DNA of 64,000 nt from Cystobasidiomycetes sp. EMM_F5 (GCA_051047955.1 JBPGPT010000001.1:1116001-1180000); one strand, 5' to 3'. Shown: positions 32,693 to 52,863, numbered from the stretch's first letter. Notes: a model not told the origin generated them from the sequence alone. Numbers and translations: made by a program.

Positions 32693-35600
32693 CTACTTCT
32701 TTTTCGTCGTCTTGCTTGCTACTTTACGTCTTTTGGGCGATTCGTCATCTATGATTACTTCCGGGACTGGCTTTCGTTTCTTGTTAGCTTGTGCGCGTTT
32801 CGGCGCTGAAGTATTCGGCGCTGTCTTGGCTGTTGAACTCGCTATAGAGGTTGAAGCCAACGACGAGACATTGGCCTTGATGGCAGGTGCGCTGTTATTG
32901 CCGCTTGGAAGCGGCTTGTCTTTGTTTCTCGAAACGTCCTCTGCTGTCATTGGGACGCTGACATTTGAGACCGCCGAATTTGCGTCGATACTGACTGTCA
33001 GGCTTCGACGGAAGTCACGCTGCCACATGGACTCTTGCAGTATAGGAATTTCTGCATCGAAGTTGCCTTGGTCGGCAATTCTGAAATTTGAATCTTTCGC
33101 AGATCTCTGATCCGTGTTTATCGGAGGCAGATTCTGCATTTGCGGAGCGAGATCGACAATGTCCGCCTGCATTTTGTGCAAGTCGATCGGACCGTTGTTT
33201 GAGGACGCTTTCTCCCTAGCATCCCGAGCTGTCGGTTCAATGCCTCCGAGTTGGTCCCATGGTCGCTCCGGTGCAAAGAACATCTCTCCTGAATCGTTCT
33301 CCAATACGCATGTAGATTCCCTCTTCTCTGAAGAAAGCAGAAGCGGAACCGTCATATGGTTTGTTCCGTAAGAATTCGTTGTTTGCCCTTCCCTCTGGCG
33401 CCATCGAGATGCTATGATGACCCAGGTACTCTCAGGGGTGTCTGCTCACCAAGTTCTTCAGTGACTGATATTGGCAAATCAAACTCGAAGCTACTCACAA
33501 TCCTTCAGGCGGACAAGCATGTCATACATCTGTTGTGCATGTTCCGATGATAGCTGAAAGTCGGCGAGCAGCCGGAAAAACCCATCAACCGCAGATTCAA
33601 GGAGATCTTCGTTTTCCGTCCACAAATCCCCATATCTCATAGCAAGGCATAGTGACTCGCATAGCACGAGCAAGCACATCATCGATTCCTTACTCATGCG
33701 CCAGCCATGTGTGGTTGCAGCCACGCTGTAACTTCGAACATGGTCGAAAGCTTGCGCCCATTTGAAAGTGAAAGTTTGCTGCAGCAGAGTGGTTACAGCT
33801 TGACTCACGCGCAGTTGCGTTGCTTGCTTCATAATGCGTCTGAATATCGAGCAGGTTATTCCGATGCGGGCTGGCAATCTGCCATATCCAGCTGGGCCGC
33901 CAGTAATAAGATTCTCCATATCTTGAACCAGACAGAGAATTGTTGCATGCAATAGCTGGAAGAAAGAAGGTCCCGCGTGTCAACAAATAGAACTCATGTG
34001 TCGATGAATGACCTTAACAATGAATGTTAGATTGACTTACTTGGTCGGCGCCGCTACCGGTGAAGGCAGACAGCTGACCGCTTCCGTTGGTCAGGCTGTC
34101 GGGTCTGTTCAAAAGTCCCTCGAGGAAACGCTGCGCGAAGACGGGGTCTTCGAACTGCTCGCTCGTCTTTGACATTTCGAGGTGCTTCAGATAGGCTTGC
34201 AGCTCCATCTGATCCAAGCGCGACACAACCACTTCGGCAGATAACGTGCAATGCTTCGTAGAGTCAGAGGTGGGGACAGATATAGGCCCAATAGGATCCG
34301 TCTGTACGCCCGAGCGGGATTTGAGAGCCTTGATGACGTCTCGAAGAACGTCGACTCGCGCCACTGCTGTATGCATGTCGTCTCCACTAGTGTCGAGCAT
34401 TTTCTCACTGACCCGTACCAAATTGCGCATGAATAGCCGCTGGAAGCGATCGTTTCGAGGCATTTTCAGCCGCAATTCTCGCACAAGCAGTGCGTGCACC
34501 TCGTCATTACGGGCTTGCAAAACGCTTTCCAGCCTGCAAAGGCTTATGAGCAGGTCAAAAATCTCGCAGATTTGCGCAGATGTGTAGAAGATTTCCAGTG
34601 CGGCTTCTACCTTTAGAAATGTCGTGGCACTGGTTTCGGTAAGCTGGTTGTGCAATAGTCTTCCAATCTGATTTGCGCATTTGATTGAACGGATTATCTG
34701 TAGGGCTGATGTGCCAGCTTCGCCGCTGAGATGCTTCGTTGTGGCGGTGAGCAACGGCATAAGATATTCTTGTACTAGGCTTGACATAGTAAGAACACCG
34801 TACGTGACCAGCTGGGAGAGAAAGACCGCATACTGCACTTTCGGCCCTTGCCCCTCATCGAAGCAGGTGCTCAGTGCACTAGTCATCACGTCGGGGAGTT
34901 TTGACTCATTACTAGTAGTCGACAGGTCATCCACAGCAAGCCAAAGCTGGGCGAGTGCTTCGGCAGCCGGGGTATTAGTTGTGTCCTCGAGCACGATGAG
35001 GATGCAGGTCGCAATGTCTGAACACCATTGAGGGTGACTTCCGTACATTTTCCAGTATGATTCTGCCAAGGAAGCGGTGCTTGCTGGAATCCAAGTGTTG
35101 ACATGACGACGGATTTCATCCAAGACCGTAACTTGGATGTCAAATGTCCAGTCTGGGCTTGCCATCTGAGCAGTTTGGTTGAGCGCCTTGTGTAGCTTGT
35201 CGACGTCGAGCGCTAATTCGTAGGATATTTTGGTGCCATTGAGTACATCTGGGGACACTTTGGGCGAGATTTCTACTAGGGTCACCAAGGTAGTCTTGCA
35301 AAAATGCCATGGTTGGAAGATCGAGTTGACAAACCGCCTGTGAGCTTTGTATAACGAAACAAACAGCTCATCTAGACACCCCATGACAGTCCATAGTGAG
35401 ATCTGAGATCGGAAGACGTCGGATAGGCATTGAAGCATGCTCCTGTGCAAAACATAGCCTTCACACAATTCCGACAGCAGGGGAACGAGTAGAGTGACGA
35501 CAGAATTATGAATCCACAGACTCAACGCGCTGGATAATTCTGCGATACCATCCGCAATACTGTTCAGTAGTCAGCAGAGGGTGTAGAAAGCTATTGCTAG

Positions 35601-38478
35601 GACTGTGACTTACGCTGATGCTGCATCCAAAGTACACTGGCTAAGCCACTCGAAGAACTTTTGCACATCGCCGACCTCAGCCCTCTCCAAATACGGGACG
35701 AGTACGTCACTGCCGCCGCGAGATTCGGCTAGCGTGCCTGTACCACTAGCATTTTGCGGTTCGCTGCCACACAGGATCGGCATGACTTTCCGAGCAACTT
35801 GTTGCAGCTCAGCCAAGCAAGATACATCGGCATTGTGAGAAACGGAATCCTTCAGGAATCTTGTCAATTGGAACTGCAGGGGTGGTGAGGGGCTAGAAAT
35901 GGGAAGTTGCCTAATGATGTACCTGTAAAATAGCTTCGGTGTTTGATGTTGCATGCCTATCGATGTATGTACTGTGTCACTACAGGTAAGAGCGTGCTGC
36001 AGGATTGCGCCGTAGTCAAGAAGGCCGTGTTCACACAGCTCGGAAACAAAAAGTGCAGTATAGCCAATTAACGATGCAATCGCCGCCTTTGAGCCGGAGT
36101 CGATCAGCTCGTCCTTTTCCCGATGCTGCAACGCTGCCTCGTCAAGCCACTGCAAAATCGCTCGCTGCGCCACAGTCCGGCGTTCCTGTTCTCCAAAATT
36201 TTCGCTGCCGAAGCGGCCGGAGTGTCCTGTCTGTTCGGTCACGAATGACTTGAGGAGATTTATCACCAAAGATCTTCCGTACGCTCCTTGTCGCGTCGAC
36301 GAGACAGCCCAAGCAAGCATTACGTGCAGGGTCTGCGGTGTTGTCAGATCGCTCGTTCGATCTGCTCGATTGATAGGCGGGCGTTTAGTAGCAGGCGAGA
36401 GCAGGTCTGTAGCTGGCTGACTCGTAATAATGGGCGAGTGAGGCTGAAATGATGTAGGCTGGGGCTTAGCAGATTGGTGAGAAATTTCATCGAAGAATTT
36501 GGAACTGGAGTCCGTTGGCTCAAAGGCGTCAAGCCATGCTACCAGAGTACATGCGCTCGTGAAATCGATTTCAAGGGATTGCGGTTTCGAGTCGCTTTTG
36601 AGTGAAACTGCAGACTCCTGCATCCACGAAAGACAGTCTGTGCTGATTAAAGACCGGACGCCGAGGACTTGATCTATGCGTTTCTTAAGGTTACTCCATA
36701 ACGCAAGAGTGCTTTGTGATGGCGAGGTTTGCGCTGTTGCCAGTGAGGGAGCGATTGCTGCTTCTAGTATTTCGCGCTTAGCGTGGTCGGCCCAGATGTT
36801 TGGACGGTATAGGGCTTCCGGGAAGGTGTTGAAGATATCTAACAAGAGAGTGTTGCAAATGGATGTGACTTCCTGTATGAGTGGCTCATCTCTGCACAAA
36901 GGCTGTTGCGAGGATGATGTCTCTGGCTCGGCGTCATCTACTATAGTGAGTTCTGATAAGCGGTCGACTGTCGAATCGACGAGGCTGAAGCCGAGATATA
37001 TGTTCGTATCGATGAGCGGAAGAACAAAGTCAGCCATGACGGAGCCCAAGAGCCCTAATTGAGCCATGTTTGCCGTCTTCCACATATCACAGAGTCCAGA
37101 AACCCATCTCGCATTGCATAATAGATCATTCTTCTGGCAGAGCTCGGCGAGCTCGAGGGAGCGGATCCATTTTGCTTGCCATTTTTCTCTGGACGTACCA
37201 TCGGCCAGTACATTCCTCGCCCGGCCCTTCACAACCATCCCAGGGCGACTCAGTGCAAGCGAAGCCGCATGCGTAACAGGCATAATCACTTCCTGTAACT
37301 GCTTGCGAAGGAGGTCGAGCGTAGCATTGGTGAATTCCAAAGTGTACGCATGCGCAGCATTGCCTCCAACACTGCTTGACTGCGAGGACGATGATGACAA
37401 CCTTAAAGACGATTTGACTGACTGTGACTACGCACGAATAGGGAGATCAGCTTTCGACCGTTGTGAGCGTAACAGAATCTGCATACGATCTCTGCTTGAC
37501 CGACACATTGTAAATACCAAATGGCCCTATCAAGAGGTATGTTCCGAGACACTACCAGATCCAGGTTCTTCTCACATGCCTTATCTACCGCTCCGGTGGC
37601 ATTGATCCGACTCGCGCTGCCGTACAAGCCTGATCCGCTGCTCGTCAATCCGGCCCCGCCTGTCGAGGCTGAAGCAGGATTGTTGGGGATGCTTTTGGCC
37701 AGCTTGGATAACGGCACAGAAGGATTTGCTAGATCTAAAAACCATGCCTCGCGTCGTGCTTCGTTGAGGACCACCCTCGACGGGCTCTTGTACGACCATG
37801 GCCTGTGCGCGTACATGAAACAGCAGCATATGTGAATGAGCAAAATGCGCTACTGCCACTGTAAATCCCGCTTGACACTACCTACCCAATACTCGGCAGA
37901 ATCTGCTTTTTGGAAGATGGAGAACCGACGGCATTGGAGACAATCTTTTGTCGTTCGATTACCTTTTGCACAATCTTTGCCAGTGCCGGCAGGGTTGGAC
38001 CGGTCAGAAGGCGCTGTCGAATATGTTGTTGCGCAGAAAAGCCTTCGGTCTGTGGGAAGTATGTCGCCCGGAACATCAGCAGACTTGACACAGCAAGAAC
38101 GTCATTGCAGCAGAGGCTCACCTGGACATGAGTTCGACTTACGAAGCCGGATTTGACAACACTCTCGGACAGGTCGTCCTCTCTTGCCATAGTAACGCCA
38201 GCAACACCCATCTGCCCAGACGAACTATCGCGACCGTGTCCCGCATAATTGCCGTGGCTGCTTGTGGACGCGGAATGCGACGAAAAGGGTTGCGGATAGA
38301 GGGCGGTCGCGCCAGGGAAGAACTCGGGATAGGCAGACTGGACGCAGCTCGGTAGGTTTGCATTAGTTGATGCCGGCTCTGCGACCGAAAGGAGTGGCAA
38401 CCGCCATTCGGGCGGCTCGAGATGCCACAGTGTCAGCTCTTTCGATGAAGTGCCCATGCTGGACGAAGCGGTAGACAT
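32693..38478 (-). CDS. MED12: Mediator kinase-module subunit Med12 (Srb8)
   Basis: Med12 domain KSPSRVVLNEARREAWFLDLANPSVPLSKLAKSIP..NIPLDRAIWYLQCVG. Long helical exons (ORFs 35610-37400, 34014-35525, 33491-33952, 32693-33355) and a basic NLS-like C-terminus. Confidence 0.85.
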
Positions 38479-39445: not shown

Positions 39446-39480
39446 CTAGATATGACACTACCACTAGATATGACACTACC
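39446..39480. repeat. 18-bp-period tandem duplication (CTAGATATGACACTACC[A]) x2
   Basis: Perfect direct repeat in the 77-bp gap between two convergent stop codons. Confidence 0.9.
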
Positions 39481-39495: not shown

Positions 39496-40527
39496 TCAAT
39501 GGGCCTGTTTAATGTCGGGACAAGCGTCTTTGATCATGAGATCCAGCACCAACATACTGCCTGGCTTGTGAGCAATGACGCGCCCTGGTATTTTGCTGTC
39601 CATGACGGCTACCTGGGGTGTTACGCCGCAGCCCCAGAACACGGGTATTTCGCCTTCGCGAAATTCGGAAGGATGTCCAAAATCCGGCTTGCCAATGTTG
39701 GCAATTCCGAGCTTTGTGGCACCCTGCGAATGTACATCAGATCGTCGTTACGAAGCTCGTAGGCTCCACATACATCGTATCCCCAAGCTACCGGTTCTCC
39801 GTGAGTTTCCACGTAGGGTCGCGTGATGTTCCTGACCTCCTCAATCTCGCTTGGCTTGTAGGGACGCATACTGACAACCATGCGTCCAGTGAAGGCTGTC
39901 AAGATCTGCGTGAGGTCTGGAATACTAGCACTCATGATGGGCTCTTACCTCCCGCCGCACATAGCGGGACTGCTGTCTTGAACATCGGAACGGTTCGCTC
40001 AATAGCGATTTGTCGAGGCATCAGACCAGCATCTATAAGTGCTGCTTCGAAAGTCTGGGAGCATCCGATCAAGAAAGCGACACTGTCGTCTCTCCACTCA
40101 TTCTCGATATTCGAGACTTCGTCAACGAGTACGCCGTCTTGGTAGATCATGTAGCCAGGTATATCTGAGCGAATATCGCAGTTGGCGGCTGCCCAAGAAG
40201 GTAGAATCGGATTGCCAGGCTCAGTTTCGACGATGAGAGGACACCTGTTTTTGTGCGATAGACAATGTAAGCAGGGCACAGGGCACAGCGGAAGACGTTC
40301 AGTGCAACGTACGGGACAGGGTTGCGCTTGCATAGCAACCGAAAATCATTTGCATATGCCCTGGGTAATATGAGAAGATTGGCCTGGACGTAGCCAGGAC
40401 AGTAGCCAGCTGTCGATGCACCGTGGAATTCGTCGGCTCGAATCTGACGCCGGAACAACTCTGCAGGAGTTGCTTTCTGGCCTCTTCTAGTCGAAGTAGC
40501 ATCATGTCCGTTGAGAAGGCCAACCAT
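39496..40527 (-). CDS. DUF1445 / D-glutamate-cyclase-like ('putative hydro-lyase', YcsI-like) protein
   Basis: TAGYCPGYVQANLLILP..ANDFRLLCKRNPVPCPL, IRSDIPGY, VAFLIGCSQTFEAAL, GRMVVSMRP, THGEPV, KPDFG, PVFWGCGVTPQ and AHKPGSMLVLD. Three introns. Confidence 0.9.
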
Positions 40528-40851: not shown

Positions 40852-40906
40852 GACTTAGGCCTGTCAGCCATCCCGCTGGGCACCGTACGGGCACCGTACG
40901 AGCTCC

Positions 40907-46192: not shown

Positions 46193-49100
46193 ATGTCGCC
46201 TACTAACGCTACCAGCAATCTCATACGCATAGCCATCGGTAAGTCTGGCGCATACATAACGAGCTAAGTGCCATGGCATTATTGATAGCTGATACGATCC
46301 TCATCCTTCTTCATGCTATCGTTTGATGTACTGATTAGATCGCGGCGGTACTTTTACCGACTTCCATGCTTCTGCATCCGGAAGACCCGATGTCGTGCTC
46401 AAGCTGCTATCCGTGGATCCTCAAAACTACGCAGACGCCCCCACTGAAGGCATTCGCCGCATTCTAGAAGACTTTACAGGCAAGAGCATACCTAGAGGCG
46501 TCAAGATCCCGCTAGACAGCGTCGAAAGCGTTCGTGTCGGTACCACCGTAGCCACTAACGCTCTGCTCGAAAGGAAGGGCGAGCGATGCGCACTATTGGT
46601 TTCGAAAGGCTGCAGAGATGTTCTTAAGATTGGAATGCAGGGCGAGTGGTTTACAGCATCCGTCTAGGAATATAACTCCTGACATCAAGGATCCACACAG
46701 CCCGGCCGGACATCTTTGATTTGTCGATAAAGAAGCTCGGTCTGCTGTATGAACGCGTGGTCGAGCTGGATGAGCGCGTCACACTTGAGGCGGCCGCCGA
46801 AGATCCAAATCAGCCTGATATCAATATAGAGGAGGATACCAATCTCGTAAAGGGGTCCACAGGCGAAGTTGTCCGCATTCTACAGAGGCCGTCGGAATCA
46901 AGCATAAACGCACATCTAGAAGATCTGCAAAAAGACGGCTTCCGCTCTATTGCTCTGGCTCTTCTGCATTCATACACATACCAAGAGCATGAGAGACTCG
47001 TAGCTAAATTAGCTCGCGCAAAAGGCTTTTCCGTTTCAGTTTCCCATGAATTACAACCTCTCATTCGTCTAGTATCGCGAGCAAACTCGACAGTCGCGGA
47101 TTCCTACCTGACACCAATCACGCGACGCTACATCGAAAGTTTTGCGAGCGGATTCGACGGTGGCCTGGAAGCATTCGGAGCCAAACTGTGAGCGTTGGAA
47201 ACAAGACTGCTTTAACACCTGCCTATATCTGACTCTATCGTTGGCAGCCTCCTTATGCAGAGTGACGGGGGCCTTACTACCTGGAATAATTTCACAGGGC
47301 TTCGCGCAGTTTTATCAGGACCAGCTGGTGGAGTGATTGGCTTCTCTAAGACTTGCTTTGACGAGTCGGAGCGCACTCCTCTTATCGCTGTAGATATGGG
47401 TGGTACCTCTACCGATGTCTCTCGATTTGATGGCGAGCTAGATCAGTAAGCGGGAATCCTGCATGATAGCGAGTTTTCGTATATACTGCTCTTTAACACC
47501 AGCGATCCGCAGTACCTTTGAATCTATCACAGCTGAGGTCATCATCTCCGCACCTCAACTCAACATCAATACCGTTGCCGCAGGGGGTGGATCGCGACTC
47601 TTCTGGAGAAACGGAATGTTCATGGTCGGCCCAGAATCTGCATCGGCGCATCCCGGGCCTACGTGCTATCGTAAAGGCGGTCCTCTAGCCATTACCGACG
47701 CTAATCTTCAGCTTGGCAGACTTTTGCCAGACGCATTGTAAGCTCGTTCTACTGATGAAGTATCGACAAGCGTTGTTGCTAACTGTCTCAAACCCTTCTC
47801 GAATACAGCCCGAAGATCTTCGGCCCCAAGGAGAACGAGGCGCTCGACGTAGAAGCGACAAACAAGGCTTTCGTGGACTTGGCGCACACTATCAACACAT
47901 CCAAGGGCGAAGATAGCAGACTATCCGCTGAAGATATCGCTCTCGGATTCCTTAGAGTAGCGGTCGAGGCTATGTGCCGACCAGTCAGATCATTGACGGA
48001 AGCTCGAGGGTATGCAGCTTCAGCACACAATCTTGTTCTCTTCGGTGGTGCAGGAGGTCAAGTCGCGTGTGCGATCGCTCGTACTCTGGGTATTGCAAGA
48101 ATTCTGTAAGTCACGCAAATGGCAATGTGAGCGTGGAAAGCCCGCTGATGCCATCGTTATCATCGTCCGCACGCTTAGTATCCCGCGCTTCTCTTCCATC
48201 TTGAGTGCATACGGTATGGCATTATCGGATGTGACTGTCGACCTGCAGGATGCTGTTCATGCGACGCTGCAGTCAAGCGGCAACAAGGGCCTTCAAGGTC
48301 ACGTCGATTCTCTAACCAAGAGGGCTGTCTCAGCGTTGAAGGACCAAGGCTTCACAGACGACTTCATCAATGTCGAGGTTTTCTTCAATTGCCACTTTGC
48401 GCAAGCCACAACGAACCTCATGATCAAGTTGCAGCCCGGTCTTGATCTTGTAAAAGCCTTCCACGACAAGCATCACGAGCTATTCGGTTTCATCTTGCAT
48501 GGTCGCGATGTCCTCGTCGACAGTGTCCGCGTTCGCGGCGTCGGTCTTGGTCCGTCAAGCGAGACAACAACACCATACGCCGAGCTTGCAACTATCCCCC
48601 TGACCTTGTTCCAAGGAGACTGCAAGAAACACAATGTCTATTTCGAGAAAGTTGGCTGGCAGACGTCCAGACTAATCGCGCTGGATGACTTGTCGCCTGG
48701 TCACCAGGTCCTAGGTCCTGCCATTATCTTCGACAAGACGCAAACTATCTTGGTGGAGCCCGACTTCATTGCAACGACTTTGTCTAAGCATGTCATCCTT
48801 GATAAGCGTGACGACGGTCTTCTTGCCAAAAAAGGCTCGGGTATCACTGGTATCGACTTGGTGCAACTTAGCGTGTTCTCTCATCGGTATGTTTGCGTTC
48901 ATGCAGCAAGCGCGAACTGACCAACTTAAATACTTGTTTGGCAGCTTCATGAGCATTGCCGAGCAGATGGGCGACACGCTGCAGCAGACTAGCATTAGTA
49001 CAAACATCAAAGAGCGTCTAGATTAGTAAGTACAAACAATCGCATACATACGAATTTACCAGCTGATGATGGCTTTACGCGTAAAGCTCATGCGCTCTCT

Positions 49101-50949
49101 TCTCTCCGGACGGTGGCCTCGTTGCCAATGCACCGCACATTCCTGTTCATCTCGGCGCAATGTCAAAGGCAGTGGCCCACCAAGCCGAATACTGGGGAGA
49201 TTCCTTGGAAGAGGGAGACGTGCTTCTCTCCAACCATCCGTATGTTATCTAGTCCATCATCGGGTGCACGGACTGACTTTGCGATGTAGCATCGCGGGAG
49301 GGTCACACCTGCCAGATTTGACGGTAATCACGCCGGCGTTCCACAATGGCAAGATTGTTTTCTGGACAGCCTCGAGAGCGGTATGTACTCACGCTGCGCT
49401 GTTGTATTGGGAAAGCTCATGAGTGTGTGTCCCTCTGTCGTCTTCCACTAGCATCATGCAGATATCGGAGGTGTTCGAGCAGGTAGCATGCCTCCGTCGT
49501 CCAAATACATTTGGCAGGAAGGTGCACAGTTCAAGACGTTCAAACTCGTCAGCAAGGGCCGCTTCCTCGAAAGAGAAGTCGTCAAGGCACTGTCTCACGA
49601 TCCGGCTCAATACCCAGGCTGCAGCGGCACTCGGACGCTCGGAGACAATCTATCCGACTTGCGCGCTCAATGCAGTGCGAACCATCGAGGCGCAATGCTG
49701 ATTCGTGCCTTGGTGCAAGAATTCACCTTGGAGACTGTGCAAAAGTACATGCTGGCTATTCAGGATACTGCTGAGAAAGCTGTCCGAACACTGTTGAAAG
49801 ACTTTTGCAAGAAGTTTGATGGCGCTCCACTCACTGCAGTCGACTATTTGGACGACGGCTCCGAGATCCACCTCAACATTCAGGTAAGAAGATTTGCTGG
49901 CTTGCAGCGAGATTTGCTGATTGTGTTTCCTCACCGCCGCAAGATTGATCGCGAGACCGGTCGAGCTGTTTTCGATTTCACTGGAACTTCCGAACAAGTG
50001 TATGGAAATCTAAATGCACCAACTGCCATCGTGTACTCTGCTATTCTTTACGTTCTGCGGTCTCTTATACATTCTCCGATACCCCTTAATCAGGGCTGCT
50101 TGGCACCCATCAAGATTATAGTACCACCCGGTACCCTGATCTCCCCTACGCACGATGTCGCTACAGTCGCTGGCAATGTCGAGACGTCAGCTCGCCTGGC
50201 GGATGTCATATTGAAGGCCTTCCAAGCCGCCGGAGCATCGCAGGGTACTTGTAACAACTTCACCTTTGGTTACGGTGGAAAGAACCAAACGACGGGAGAG
50301 GTGACACAGGGCTTCGGCTACTACGAGACCATCTGTGGTGGAGCGGGAGCTGGCGAAGGCTGGCACGGGCAAAGCGGGTGCGTAGTGAGGCGCTCCAGAG
50401 AGTCAATACAGTGTGCTGATAATCCCAACAATAGCGTGCATTGTCATATGACAAACACCGCCATCGGAGACACTGAAATCATCGAGAGAAGGTATCCTGT
50501 CATTGTGCACGAGTTCGCTGTGCGGCCAGGGACAGGAGGCAAGGGCAAATGGAACGGCGGATGCGGTGTGATCCGCGACTTCGAGGTGAGTGCAAGAGAC
50601 GAGATGTGACATATTGCAACTCACGAATGATCTGTCATTGCTTGGCAGTTTCGACGAGCAATCGATGTGGCCATCCTGTCCGAACGACGTGTTGTCGCGC
50701 CTTACGGAATGAAAGGAGGTCTCCCAGGACAGCGCGGACTGAATCTATGGATGCGGAAACTAGATGATGGCTCGTATCAGGCTGTCAATGTTTCCGGCAA
50801 GGCTGAATTTACTGTGAAAGTTGGCGACCGCTTCGTCATTAGTAAGTCAAAGACATGCAGCATCACACTGCCCGACACGAGCTGACCTCATCATTTATGT
50901 AGATACGCCAGGAGGCGGTGGATATGGCGCTCCGGAGGGGAAAGAGTGA
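46193..50949 (+). CDS. OXP1: ATP-dependent 5-oxoprolinase (fused hydantoinase A+B type)
   Basis: [118 protein letters not shown] and TPGGGGYG. Many short introns. Confidence 0.95.
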
Positions 50950-51324: not shown

Positions 51325-52863
51325 TCAATGTCTGTTTGGAGCTGATCCCGGTATGAACTCATACGACTCCTCCTGAGTGGGCTGGAAAGCAAAGAGCTGT
51401 GCCAGCTTGCGATACTCGTCATCATCCTGAACGAGCTTGAAGTTTGCAAGCGCAAACGTTCTATCCTCGCTCTGTTCCACCTTCCTCATAGCGCGCTGCT
51501 CATTCTCCAGTTTGGATTTAGCGACGCCAGCCTTGTCAAAGTCTGATGATCGGATACCGTCTGCGACATCCTTCCACACTCTACGACTCTCCATGCTTCC
51601 CTGCTCCGAGATGGATGCTACTTGAATTTGATGACGACTGGCAGAATCGTCTTCACCAGTAGCATCCGTGAAGATGGGGTTGGACTCGTACTGTCGAATA
51701 CTCGACTTGACAAACTTTGAAAGCCCAGTCCATTGTCCCTCGATAATATGAGCAGCGGAAGCGGCAGGATGCGGCGACACATTTGCGACAAACCGATGGG
51801 CAGCACCGCTCAGGTAGCCCTTGCCCTTGTAGGTGATTGCAGCGTGGTAGCCCGACGAGGACTGGATAAAGGACTGTTCGATGAGCTCGACGCTGCAGTG
51901 ACAGATAGGCTTTAGTATAGGGCATGGAGATGAGCAAGTCACAAAGGAACGCACTAAGGACTTCCAAAGAGCAGACCGTCGATTCGTAGTTTTGGAAGTG
52001 TGATGAGGTACGACTCGTCTTTACCGTCTGGCGTCTTGATGGACACGATGGCGTGTCCAACCTGTTTGACCATGATGCTCTTTCCTGAAAACGACGTCTT
52101 TTGAGCAAAGTGACCCGTCACCTTTACCTTCTTTTCCACGTTTTCCAGCTTGAAGGCGGTAATGGGCGGATGGTGTGATACCTGTTCGGCAGCGAGGTCG
52201 AGTCGTCCAGTCGAGGGAGATGAAAAGTAGCCGTAGAATTGCTCGCCGAGAATGGGATTCAGTGGCTTCTTTTCGCTGCCCGTCGTTGTTTCCCGACGGG
52301 TGTAAGAGCCCTGTAGAGAATATAAAATGCCGAGTGTGAGAATCTCCATACAAACGAGTTTGACTTGGACATACCTTCAAGGTTGCAATGAACCATTTGA
52401 GCGTCCTGAGCATTCGTTCCTCTGGCGTGGACCCCGCTGAAATAGCGGCCAGCTCATCACACGGTTCGCCCCAGTCTGCAAAACAAATGTGCATTAGCTG
52501 ACGAACACGGACACTCGACACTCGGACAGAGACGCCTCACAGGCACTGAATTCGACGAGGGAAGTGGGCGAGAGAATGAAGGAGGGGGCCGTCATTGACG
52601 AAAGGTCGCCCGTCATGCTTGCCAGGCTGTGTGGCGAGTTGTCCACACCACGAGTGACGAGAAATGTCAGCTGCCTGCTTCCGACGACGTCGAGCATAAC
52701 GCACGACTTTATGAATGATGTCCATGACCCTTTCTGTGAGCGCAGGGATGGATGCGAGCAGTCAGGATATATCAATCCGAGCGAGCATGTACATGACACT
52801 CTGCTGCATGCTCGTTTGACCTACCTGCGCCTGGGGAACTGCGCCTGCGTCCTGTTCCGACAT
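51325..52863 (-). CDS. Oxysterol-binding protein, short ORD-only Osh4/Kes1 type
   Basis: SWTSFIKSLASMTGDLSSMTAPSFILSPTSL, SEKKPLNPILGEQF, signature EQVSHHPP and KSKLENEQRAMRK. Confidence 0.93.

Follow-up and report, generated by a model that had tools for sequence, protein, structure and literature searches.

A fungal, intron-bearing DUF1445/YcsI gene in a recurring 5-oxoprolinase neighbourhood and the tentative case for a two-thiol 5-oxoproline racemase

The DUF1445/YcsI proteins are a large family that occurs in bacterial 5-oxoprolinase operons and as half of the animal D-glutamate cyclase, and the reaction they carry out is yet to be assigned. Here we describe a new fungal member of this known family, encoded by an intron-bearing gene in a 64,000-nucleotide stretch of DNA from Cystobasidiomycetes sp. 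EMM_F5 (GCA_051047955.1, JBPGPT010000001.1:1116001-1180000; the whole stretch is called the window below), where it is part of a recurring cluster that includes a gene of the 5-oxoprolinase family. The window sequence reads as fungal DNA. Characterised oxoprolinases are L-specific, and cofactor-independent racemases and epimerases that use two thiols include proline racemase, DapF, the glutamate racemase MurI and hydantoin racemase. We consider the idea that the DUF1445 protein is a 5-oxoproline racemase to be plausible, as a tentative reading that may well prove wrong.

Among the described systems, the bacterial YcsI/UPF0317 proteins annotated as "putative hydro-lyase", which include the solved structures 2PIF and 3DB9, are like the window protein in having a single domain, the same length class and the same two Cys motifs, and their genes are also adjacent to 5-oxoprolinase genes. 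In Bacillus subtilis, ycsI belongs to the pxp operon. The window gene differs from these in being eukaryotic and in having three introns; its partner is a fused enzyme of the OPLAH/OXP1 type rather than PxpABC, and it is accompanied by a Zn2Cys6 regulator and a major facilitator superfamily (MFS) transporter, whereas the bacterial loci have LysR/GntR regulators and Nramp/TRAP/ABC transporters. In the literature examined we found no demonstrated activity for the stand-alone YcsI/UPF0317 group. Literature searches found no paper naming a 5-oxoproline or pyroglutamate racemase and none pairing oxoprolinase with D-5-oxoproline terms, and among the papers on DUF1445, UPF0317, ycsI, PF07286 or DGLUCY none, judged by title or abstract, concerned mechanism.

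Mammalian mitochondrial DGLUCY (C14orf159 / 9030617O03Rik) has the DUF1445 domain in common with the window protein, and both are tied to D-glutamate and 5-oxoproline chemistry. DGLUCY, however, carries a second domain, DUF4392, which the window protein is without and which is reported to be absent from fungi in the available part of the TON_0340 paper (PMC5132392). The same portion of that paper describes DUF4392 as an enzyme domain that binds Mn through six invariant acidic ligands, mentions that Atu3911 homologues occur in fungi, and suggests that the fused domains run sequentially linked reactions. According to the accessible part of Ariyoshi 2017 (PMC5339696), whole mouse DGLUCY (DUF1445, then DUF4392) turns D-glutamate into 5-oxo-D-proline, an activity not assigned there to either domain, and humans excrete 5-oxo-D-proline; the D form thus occurs in the environment.

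The DUF1445 gene and its family

Splicing by coordinates on the minus strand gives a coding sequence of 861 nt (Table 1) that encodes 286 amino acids, followed by TGA at 39498-39496. The introns are 68, 53 and 50 nt long and all three have GT..AG ends. Exons 2, 3 and 4 each exceed the gathering score of PF07286 (D-Glu_cyclase, formerly DUF1445), which is 25 bits, and the model positions that they match are contiguous from one exon to the next, which supports the splice model. Exon 1 aligns by tblastn and blastp with the N-terminal region of YcsI proteins from bacteria, and in the spliced reading the Cys73 codon straddles intron 1. The two cysteines of chief interest here are Cys133, whose TGC codon (40063-40061) lies within IGCSQTFE, and Cys243, whose TGC codon (39630-39628) lies within WGCGVTPQ. 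An earlier note on this DNA had located both Gly-Cys motifs and both Cys codons, and its positions agree exactly with those found after splicing. It had also described a short protein of about 290 amino acids that is DUF1445 only, with no extra C-terminal domain, and this too holds: PF07286 is the sole Pfam match of the 286-residue protein, and tblastn found no homologue of DUF4392 (PF14336) or of Pxp in the 64-kb window. The protein is therefore stand-alone, and the two-domain DUF1445 plus DUF4392 architecture of DGLUCY is not present in it. A 164-base contig from one sequencing run (its type is guessed), which contained 9% of the words looked for, spans 39628-39791 and is unspliced across intron 3; it is compatible with DNA and has no bearing on DUF1445 expression.

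Table 1. Positions of the DUF1445 gene, its exons and neighbouring genes in the window
Feature	Positions	Strand	Remarks
DUF1445/YcsI gene, whole	39496-40527	minus	4 exons; coincides with the span given by the earlier note
DUF1445 exon 1	40313..40527	minus	ATG 40527-40525; N-terminal region including NPVPCP; no Pfam match of its own
DUF1445 exon 2	39949..40244	minus	PF07286 positions 1-44, 45.3 bits, E 1e-11; first Gly-Cys motif FLIGCSQTFE
DUF1445 exon 3	39774..39895	minus	PF07286 positions 46-85, 44.9 bits; VVSMRP and HGEP motifs
DUF1445 exon 4 and stop	39496..39723	minus	PF07286 positions 86-143, 79.6 bits, E 2.8e-22; second Gly-Cys motif VFWGCGVTPQ
Zn2Cys6 transcription factor gene	40907..~43833	plus	PF00172 Zn_clus E 5.5e-11; extent approximate
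MFS transporter gene	43978..~45740	minus	PF07690 MFS_1 on two open reading frame (ORF) pieces; start inferred from ORF; extent approximate
OPLAH/OXP1-type fused hydantoinase A and B gene (5-oxoprolinase family)	46193..50949	plus	ATG at 46193; final ORF ends at 50949; several introns; divergent from MFS gene
Pair of long ORFs (503 and 596 aa) that probably belong to a single large gene as exons	34014-35525 and 35610-37400	minus	no Pfam match at E 0.001
Oxysterol-binding protein gene	51325-52349	minus	PF01237 on two ORF pieces; right-hand cluster limit

By blastp the spliced protein is 54-56% identical over residues 20-273 to bacterial stand-alone YcsI/UPF0317 proteins (P0006, P0009 and P0001) and 51% identical to a Penicillium protein. 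The near-invariant motifs of the family (NPxPCP, GCS, VSMRP, HGxP and FWxCGVT) are all found in it. Exon 4 matches the solved family members 3db9_A (Atu3911; E 8.6e-16) and 2pif_A (PSPTO_5379; E 2.8e-15), and both of these carry both Cys motifs; by alignment, the cysteines are residues 124 and 232 of 2PIF and residues 125 and 233 of 3DB9. The YcsI/DUF1445 family has 3243 cluster representatives at E <=1e-3; of the 8000 90%-identity clusters that were scored, 7233 are at E <=1e-5. A FastTree phylogeny of 116 rows, from which 46 of the 162 aligned rows had been removed as fragments or second pieces, places the window protein within a 13-row clade (support 0.96) whose five named members come from Penicillium, Aspergillus (two), Lasiosphaeria and Colletotrichum, and this fungal clade branches within the radiation of bacterial stand-alone proteins, well separated from the forms fused to DUF4392. 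Several database gene calls of fungal-like relatives run into unrelated sequence from the VFW of the second Cys motif or from a point beyond it (P0296, P0257 and P0251, and further downstream P0253; alignment A2; L081 865-1872). Such divergence resembles an unspliced intron, so the apparent loss of the motif or the C terminus in these four is probably an annotation artefact.

Association with 5-oxoprolinase genes

The partner gene in the window matches Hydant_A_N (PF05378), Hydant_A_C (PF19278) and Hydantoinase_B (PF02538, E 3.3e-100) on successive ORF pieces of the same strand, and its Hydantoinase_A (PF01968) region was covered by tblastn with P0163. Judged by these matches, the presence of HydA and HydB regions in one long gene is the fused architecture of eukaryotic 5-oxoprolinase. 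Its largest HydB exon shares 52-60% identity with fungal proteins of 1250-1370 amino acids that carry the annotation 5-oxoprolinase (one bears the name Oxp1p), and no protein in a 5.8-billion collection was above 60% identity to it. Neither the OPLAH-type protein nor the DUF1445 protein is present as such in that collection, so the organism seems poorly represented there. Solved relatives of the OPLAH-type protein are distant only (N-methylhydantoinase, E 2.3e-10; hydantoinase, E 2.5e-7). The stop-to-stop ORF at 49452-50609 within this gene probably still holds in-frame introns.

The same pairing is the dominant context of the family in bacteria. The bacterial sample was the best 80 out of 468 relatives confirmed for a single query, with one genome per species; many are Clostridia, so the loci are not independent. 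Pxp genes lie within 8 kb of DUF1445 in 54 of the 80 loci, and in 50 of them all three (PxpABC) do; HydA/B is near DUF1445 in 9, and one or the other kind of oxoprolinase in 57. The spacing is often tight, with an oxoprolinase gene at most 300 bp from DUF1445 in 53 loci and DUF1445 situated between pxpC and pxpA in 37. A separate DUF4392 gene is present in 41 loci and is missing from 22 of the 57 that are linked to an oxoprolinase. Since DUF4392 is absent from those 22 and from this window as well, the DUF1445-oxoprolinase pair is the core of the association. The pairing is spread over many bacterial phyla, and it also occurs within single polypeptides: HydB(+HydA)-DUF1445 fusions make up 5 of 36 long representatives (P0163, P0165, P0179, P0151 and P0206). 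The named fusions come from Planctomycetota metagenome genomes, P0163 and P0165 are about 1480 amino acids long, and the DUF1445 domain of the fusions is C-terminal. DUF4392 fusions, in either order, account for 15 of the 36, and PF07286 stands alone in 8. Linkage to two unrelated ring-opening enzymes, together with fusion to one of them, suggests a shared metabolite.

A fungal counterpart was found by scanning metagenome contigs with the fungal-clade alignment, which gave 80 loci, 56 of them with a GC fraction below 0.58. These 56 include 13 with an OPLAH-type gene, 22 with a related MFS gene and 12 with both, and the 13 OPLAH-type genes are 48-53% identical to that of the window. When only the low-GC loci of at least 9 kb are counted (n=24), the OPLAH-type gene is present in 11 and a related MFS gene in 16. 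Seven loci were inspected. In three of them HydAB forms a single ORF (1289-1332 amino acids), in others it is split as if by introns, and the five of low GC have coding densities of 0.62-0.80; because of these intron-like splits and low coding densities we call the contigs fungal-like. As their genes are ordered differently from those of the window, the association is not a single arrangement passed on by descent. The 24 high-GC loci have HydA/B in 19 and Pxp in none. The cluster logic of the earlier note, which had been argued from the window by itself, is thus strengthened beyond it by the 57 bacterial loci, by the HydA-HydB fusions and by the recurring fungal-like OPLAH/MFS neighbourhood.

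It might still be that the neighbourhood in the window is coincidental and that the gene serves an unrelated pathway. In keeping with this, an OPLAH-type gene is missing within 10 kb in 13 of the 24 long fungal-like loci, a search of the 80 metagenome loci with the Zn2Cys6 protein of the window as query gave no match, and the two divergent promoters of the window have no word of 9 or more bases in common. CGG..CCG pairs are present in both divergent spacers and none is conspicuous as shared (no chance expectation was computed). Against a coincidence stand the recurrence of the pairing in fungal-like contigs with other gene orders, its occurrence in many bacterial phyla and the fusions, and we regard coincidence as very improbable.

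Conserved cysteines, fold and candidate reactions

Lack of conservation of the two cysteines, which the earlier note had named as one outcome that would count against its proposal, was not seen. Both are present in 121 of the 133 family rows that have a residue at both columns, as two conserved cysteines are in the two-thiol racemases; the exceptions are 7 rows without the first only, 2 without the second only and 3 without both. Over all 162 rows, the first column has C in 143, S in 7, G in 3 and a gap in 9, and the second has C in 133, S in 3, T in 1, H in 1 and a gap in 24. Losses of the two are coupled (3/10 versus 2/123, Fisher p 0.003, with kinship among rows not corrected), and both cysteines are kept in 5 of 5 Hyd-fused and 15 of 15 DUF4392-fused representatives. 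Conservation of the two Cys motifs is far beyond chance. Other near-invariant columns are S179-M180-R181, H202, G203 and P205, and the near-invariant polar residues besides the cysteines are D99, Y103, S134, R181 and H202. A three-Cys iron-sulfur cluster formed by Cys73, Cys133 and Cys243 was considered and rejected, since position 73 is often V, L, I, M, F or A in rows where both other cysteines are retained; such a cluster is unlikely.

As the likeliest single reading we suggest that the clustered DUF1445 protein inverts 5-oxo-D-proline to the L form with Cys133 and Cys243 as its acid/base pair, a proposal drawn from sequence and gene context that we hold tentatively and would not call probable. 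In the scheme that we infer, which covers the substrate of DUF1445, the direction of its reaction and the two-thiol chemistry, 5-oxo-D-proline would be taken up by the clustered MFS importer or would be formed from D-glutamate, possibly by the DUF1445 enzyme itself. The DUF1445 protein would then turn the D form into the L form, with one thiol of the pair acting as acid and the other as base, and the OPLAH-type enzyme would open 5-oxo-L-proline to L-glutamate in an ATP-driven step. The neighbouring Zn2Cys6 regulator would control the cluster, and where DUF4392 is present it could act as a metal-dependent D-glutamate cyclase. The argument for this scheme is that a lone cyclase would give the ATP-driven opener the wrong enantiomer or a futile cycle, so D-to-L inversion is the simplest coherent arrangement. 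The putative substrate, like the proline or hydantoin used by two-thiol racemases, would be a five-membered-ring alpha-carboxylate, and in a structural model (below) each of the two strongly conserved cysteines is predicted to sit between the end of a strand and the beginning of a helix, in a unit that may be weakly repeated.

The protein could instead be a plain D-glutamate cyclase (EC 4.2.1.48) that converts D-glutamate to 5-oxo-D-proline, with the cysteines serving in binding or in catalysis of ring closure. Closure of the glutamate ring is energetically downhill, and PF07286 bears the name D-Glu_cyclase. Mouse DGLUCY, the sole assayed protein containing PF07286, has cyclase activity according to the accessible part of its report (PMC5339696); that activity was, however, measured on the two-domain protein and is not assigned there to DUF1445. 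The other DGLUCY domain, DUF4392, is itself a Mn-binding enzyme domain and is described as absent from fungi in the portion of PMC5132392 available. Moreover, a cyclase that neighbours an ATP-driven opener or is fused to it would set up a futile cycle or end in a D-lactam that goes no further, and this pairing is nonetheless the dominant context of the family. We therefore think a plain cyclase unlikely, while giving it real weight.

The fold was modelled by proxy on P0009, the bacterial homologue with 56% identity to the window protein, from an alignment of 101 rows. Its AlphaFold model (m78806594ee7e) has a pLDDT of 97.1 and a pTM of 0.93. In the model C111 follows strand E104-110 and precedes helix H113-121, and C219 follows strand E212-218 and precedes helix H222-229. 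When residues 98-178 of the family alignment were compared with residues 205-256, hhalign superimposed the two Cys-bearing units Cys on Cys over 44 columns, a weak match (E 2.9e-4, probability 40.6%), and the two motifs cross-match each other weakly in HMMER too; these matches hint weakly at an internal repeat that may bear one Cys per unit. Foldseek listed 5 matches at E <=0.001 and a wide VIA-align search listed 4 chains at Z >=5. The structural matches to the P0009 model are 2PIF and 3DB9, followed by the NrpR-like domain of MJ0159 (3NEK; Foldseek E 4.2e-6; VIA-align Z 9.7 and rmsd 3.5 over 162 residues), which is the sole neighbour listed from outside the family; all other VIA-align matches are at Z <=5.2. 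An ESM Atlas feature search that left out PF07286 gave no usable match.

3NEK is only 10-11% identical to DUF1445, and its family is that of the euryarchaeal nitrogen repressor, a regulator context, with C5 dicarboxylates as the ligand class. NrpR is described in the available part of PMC4902934 as a repressor that responds to 2-oxoglutarate, and since the nearest foreign fold is NrpR-like, the DUF1445 fold may by analogy bind C5 dicarboxylates. Thus the protein might be a non-catalytic sensor or gatekeeper of C5 dicarboxylates that modulates its oxoprolinase partner, as the fold likeness to a regulator domain and the fusion to HydA-HydB would allow. We find this very unlikely: linkage to two unrelated oxoprolinase machines points to a metabolite in common rather than to a contact between proteins, the near-invariant polar residues are patterned as in an enzyme, and the domain is fused to unrelated enzymes too (PALP in 1 and NUDIX in 1 of the 36 long representatives).

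The likeness to NrpR also bears on the possibility that DUF1445 is a metal enzyme in which the two cysteines, with His202 and/or Asp99, bind for example Zn, like the Cys-His-Cys hydro-lyases, and which opens, closes or isomerises some other ring, such as 2-hydroxy-5-oxoproline, the lactam of 2-oxoglutaramate. H202, D99 and both cysteines are near-invariant, and a carbon-nitrogen hydrolase (CN_hydrolase) of an omega-amidase-like family is adjacent to DUF1445 in 3 of the 80 bacterial loci. The accessible part of a preprint (10.1101/2021.12.09.472016) further reports that Pxp and Hyd paralogues of P. putida act on several lactams, opening butyrolactam and valerolactam as well. This CN_hydrolase context is rare, however, and neither 2PIF nor 3DB9 has a metal in its title. 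The 7 rows that swap only the first Cys for Ser or Gly keep the second, which is unusual for a metal ligand. A metal enzyme of this kind seems to us unlikely, to the same degree as a plain cyclase.

To return to the two-thiol racemase, several observations weigh against it. In a chiral separation able to tell D from L standards, whole mouse DGLUCY gave 5-oxo-D-proline as its product, and the available part of the report describes no L-glutamate peak and no glutamate racemase activity (PMC5339696). DGLUCY-like proteins of sponge, jellyfish and choanoflagellates keep both Cys motifs, which suggests that in the animal lineage the Cys pair coexists with a D-retaining outcome. If other lactams are opened by Pxp/Hyd paralogues, as the preprint portion cited above indicates, then by analogy the substrate need not be 5-oxoproline, and D99, Y103, S134, R181 and H202 could form another active site, e.g. 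a Cys2-His metal site. No oxoprolinase gene is nearby in 23 of the 80 bacterial loci, whose contexts are mixed, and the 13 long fungal-like loci mentioned above likewise have no OPLAH-type gene in range. Finally, no racemase fold is among the Foldseek and VIA-align matches listed (the listing alone does not exclude one), and the family profile has no sequence match to racemases at E up to 10. The racemase reading of the earlier note is thus partly supported. It has gained from the conserved cysteines, although conservation by itself does not establish racemisation, and from the stronger cluster logic, and has lost ground from the listed folds and from the D product of mouse DGLUCY.

In its most general form our proposal is that DUF1445/YcsI is a new fold of two-thiol 5-oxoproline racemase which, with an L-specific oxoprolinase (and with DUF4392 as a Mn-dependent cyclase where present), would provide a one-way, ATP-driven route from 5-oxo-D-proline or D-glutamate to L-glutamate in bacteria and fungi; this is possible and distinctly doubtful. 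The two unrelated ring-openers, the fusions and the recurring fungal cluster narrow the candidate reactions to a few assays. Such a racemase would explain the clearing or use of a D-lactam that L-specific oxoprolinases cannot open, and the two-thiol racemases would gain a new structural class; should this reading prove wrong, the assays would still tell which DGLUCY domain is the cyclase.

Other features of the window and of the sampled loci

The DUF1445 and Zn2Cys6 genes are divergent and are separated by a 379-bp spacer. The regulator also matches PF04082 (Fungal_trans) at E 1.2e-4, with 21.7 bits against a cut-off of 23. The MFS_1 match of the transporter has E 5.4e-15, and that of its second piece has E 1e-6 with 28.4 bits, under the cut-off of 33.4.

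Among the bacterial loci, 99 ORFs from 20 loci were scanned for context: 14 loci without oxoprolinase and DUF4392, 3 with DUF4392 only and 3 with HydA/B (L015, L024 and L042). No second recurring theme was found among these ORFs; single finds were a pyroglutamyl peptidase (L021) and a Hydantoinase_A-like ORF (L016). Six loci of Rokubacteria/Methylomirabilota type (L017, L025, L027, L047, L062 and L064) have DUF1445, then pxpB-pxpC-pxpA and then HydA, with HydB also present in five of them, so that both kinds of ATP-driven ring-opener are in one string. The CN_hydrolase genes adjoin DUF1445 in L007 (3508-8762), L008 and L029, and two of these three loci also have DUF2848, a GntR regulator and an MFS gene instead of an oxoprolinase; these loci may provide a link to 2-oxoglutaramate or its lactam. 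The 36 long representatives further include five fusions to the DNA-binding domain of 6-O-methylguanine-DNA methyltransferase (MGMT; P0122, P0152, P0164, P0167 and P0175) and single fusions to PALP (PLP-dependent, threonine dehydratase-like), NUDIX and FKBP domains (P0130; P0131; P0186).

Two short repeats flank the DUF1445 gene in the window. A tandem 11-base direct repeat (GGGCACCGTAC, twice, including CCGTACGG) lies at 40878-40899, directly before the ATG of the regulator, and a 17-base direct repeat is present at 39446-39480, 16-50 bases past the DUF1445 stop codon.

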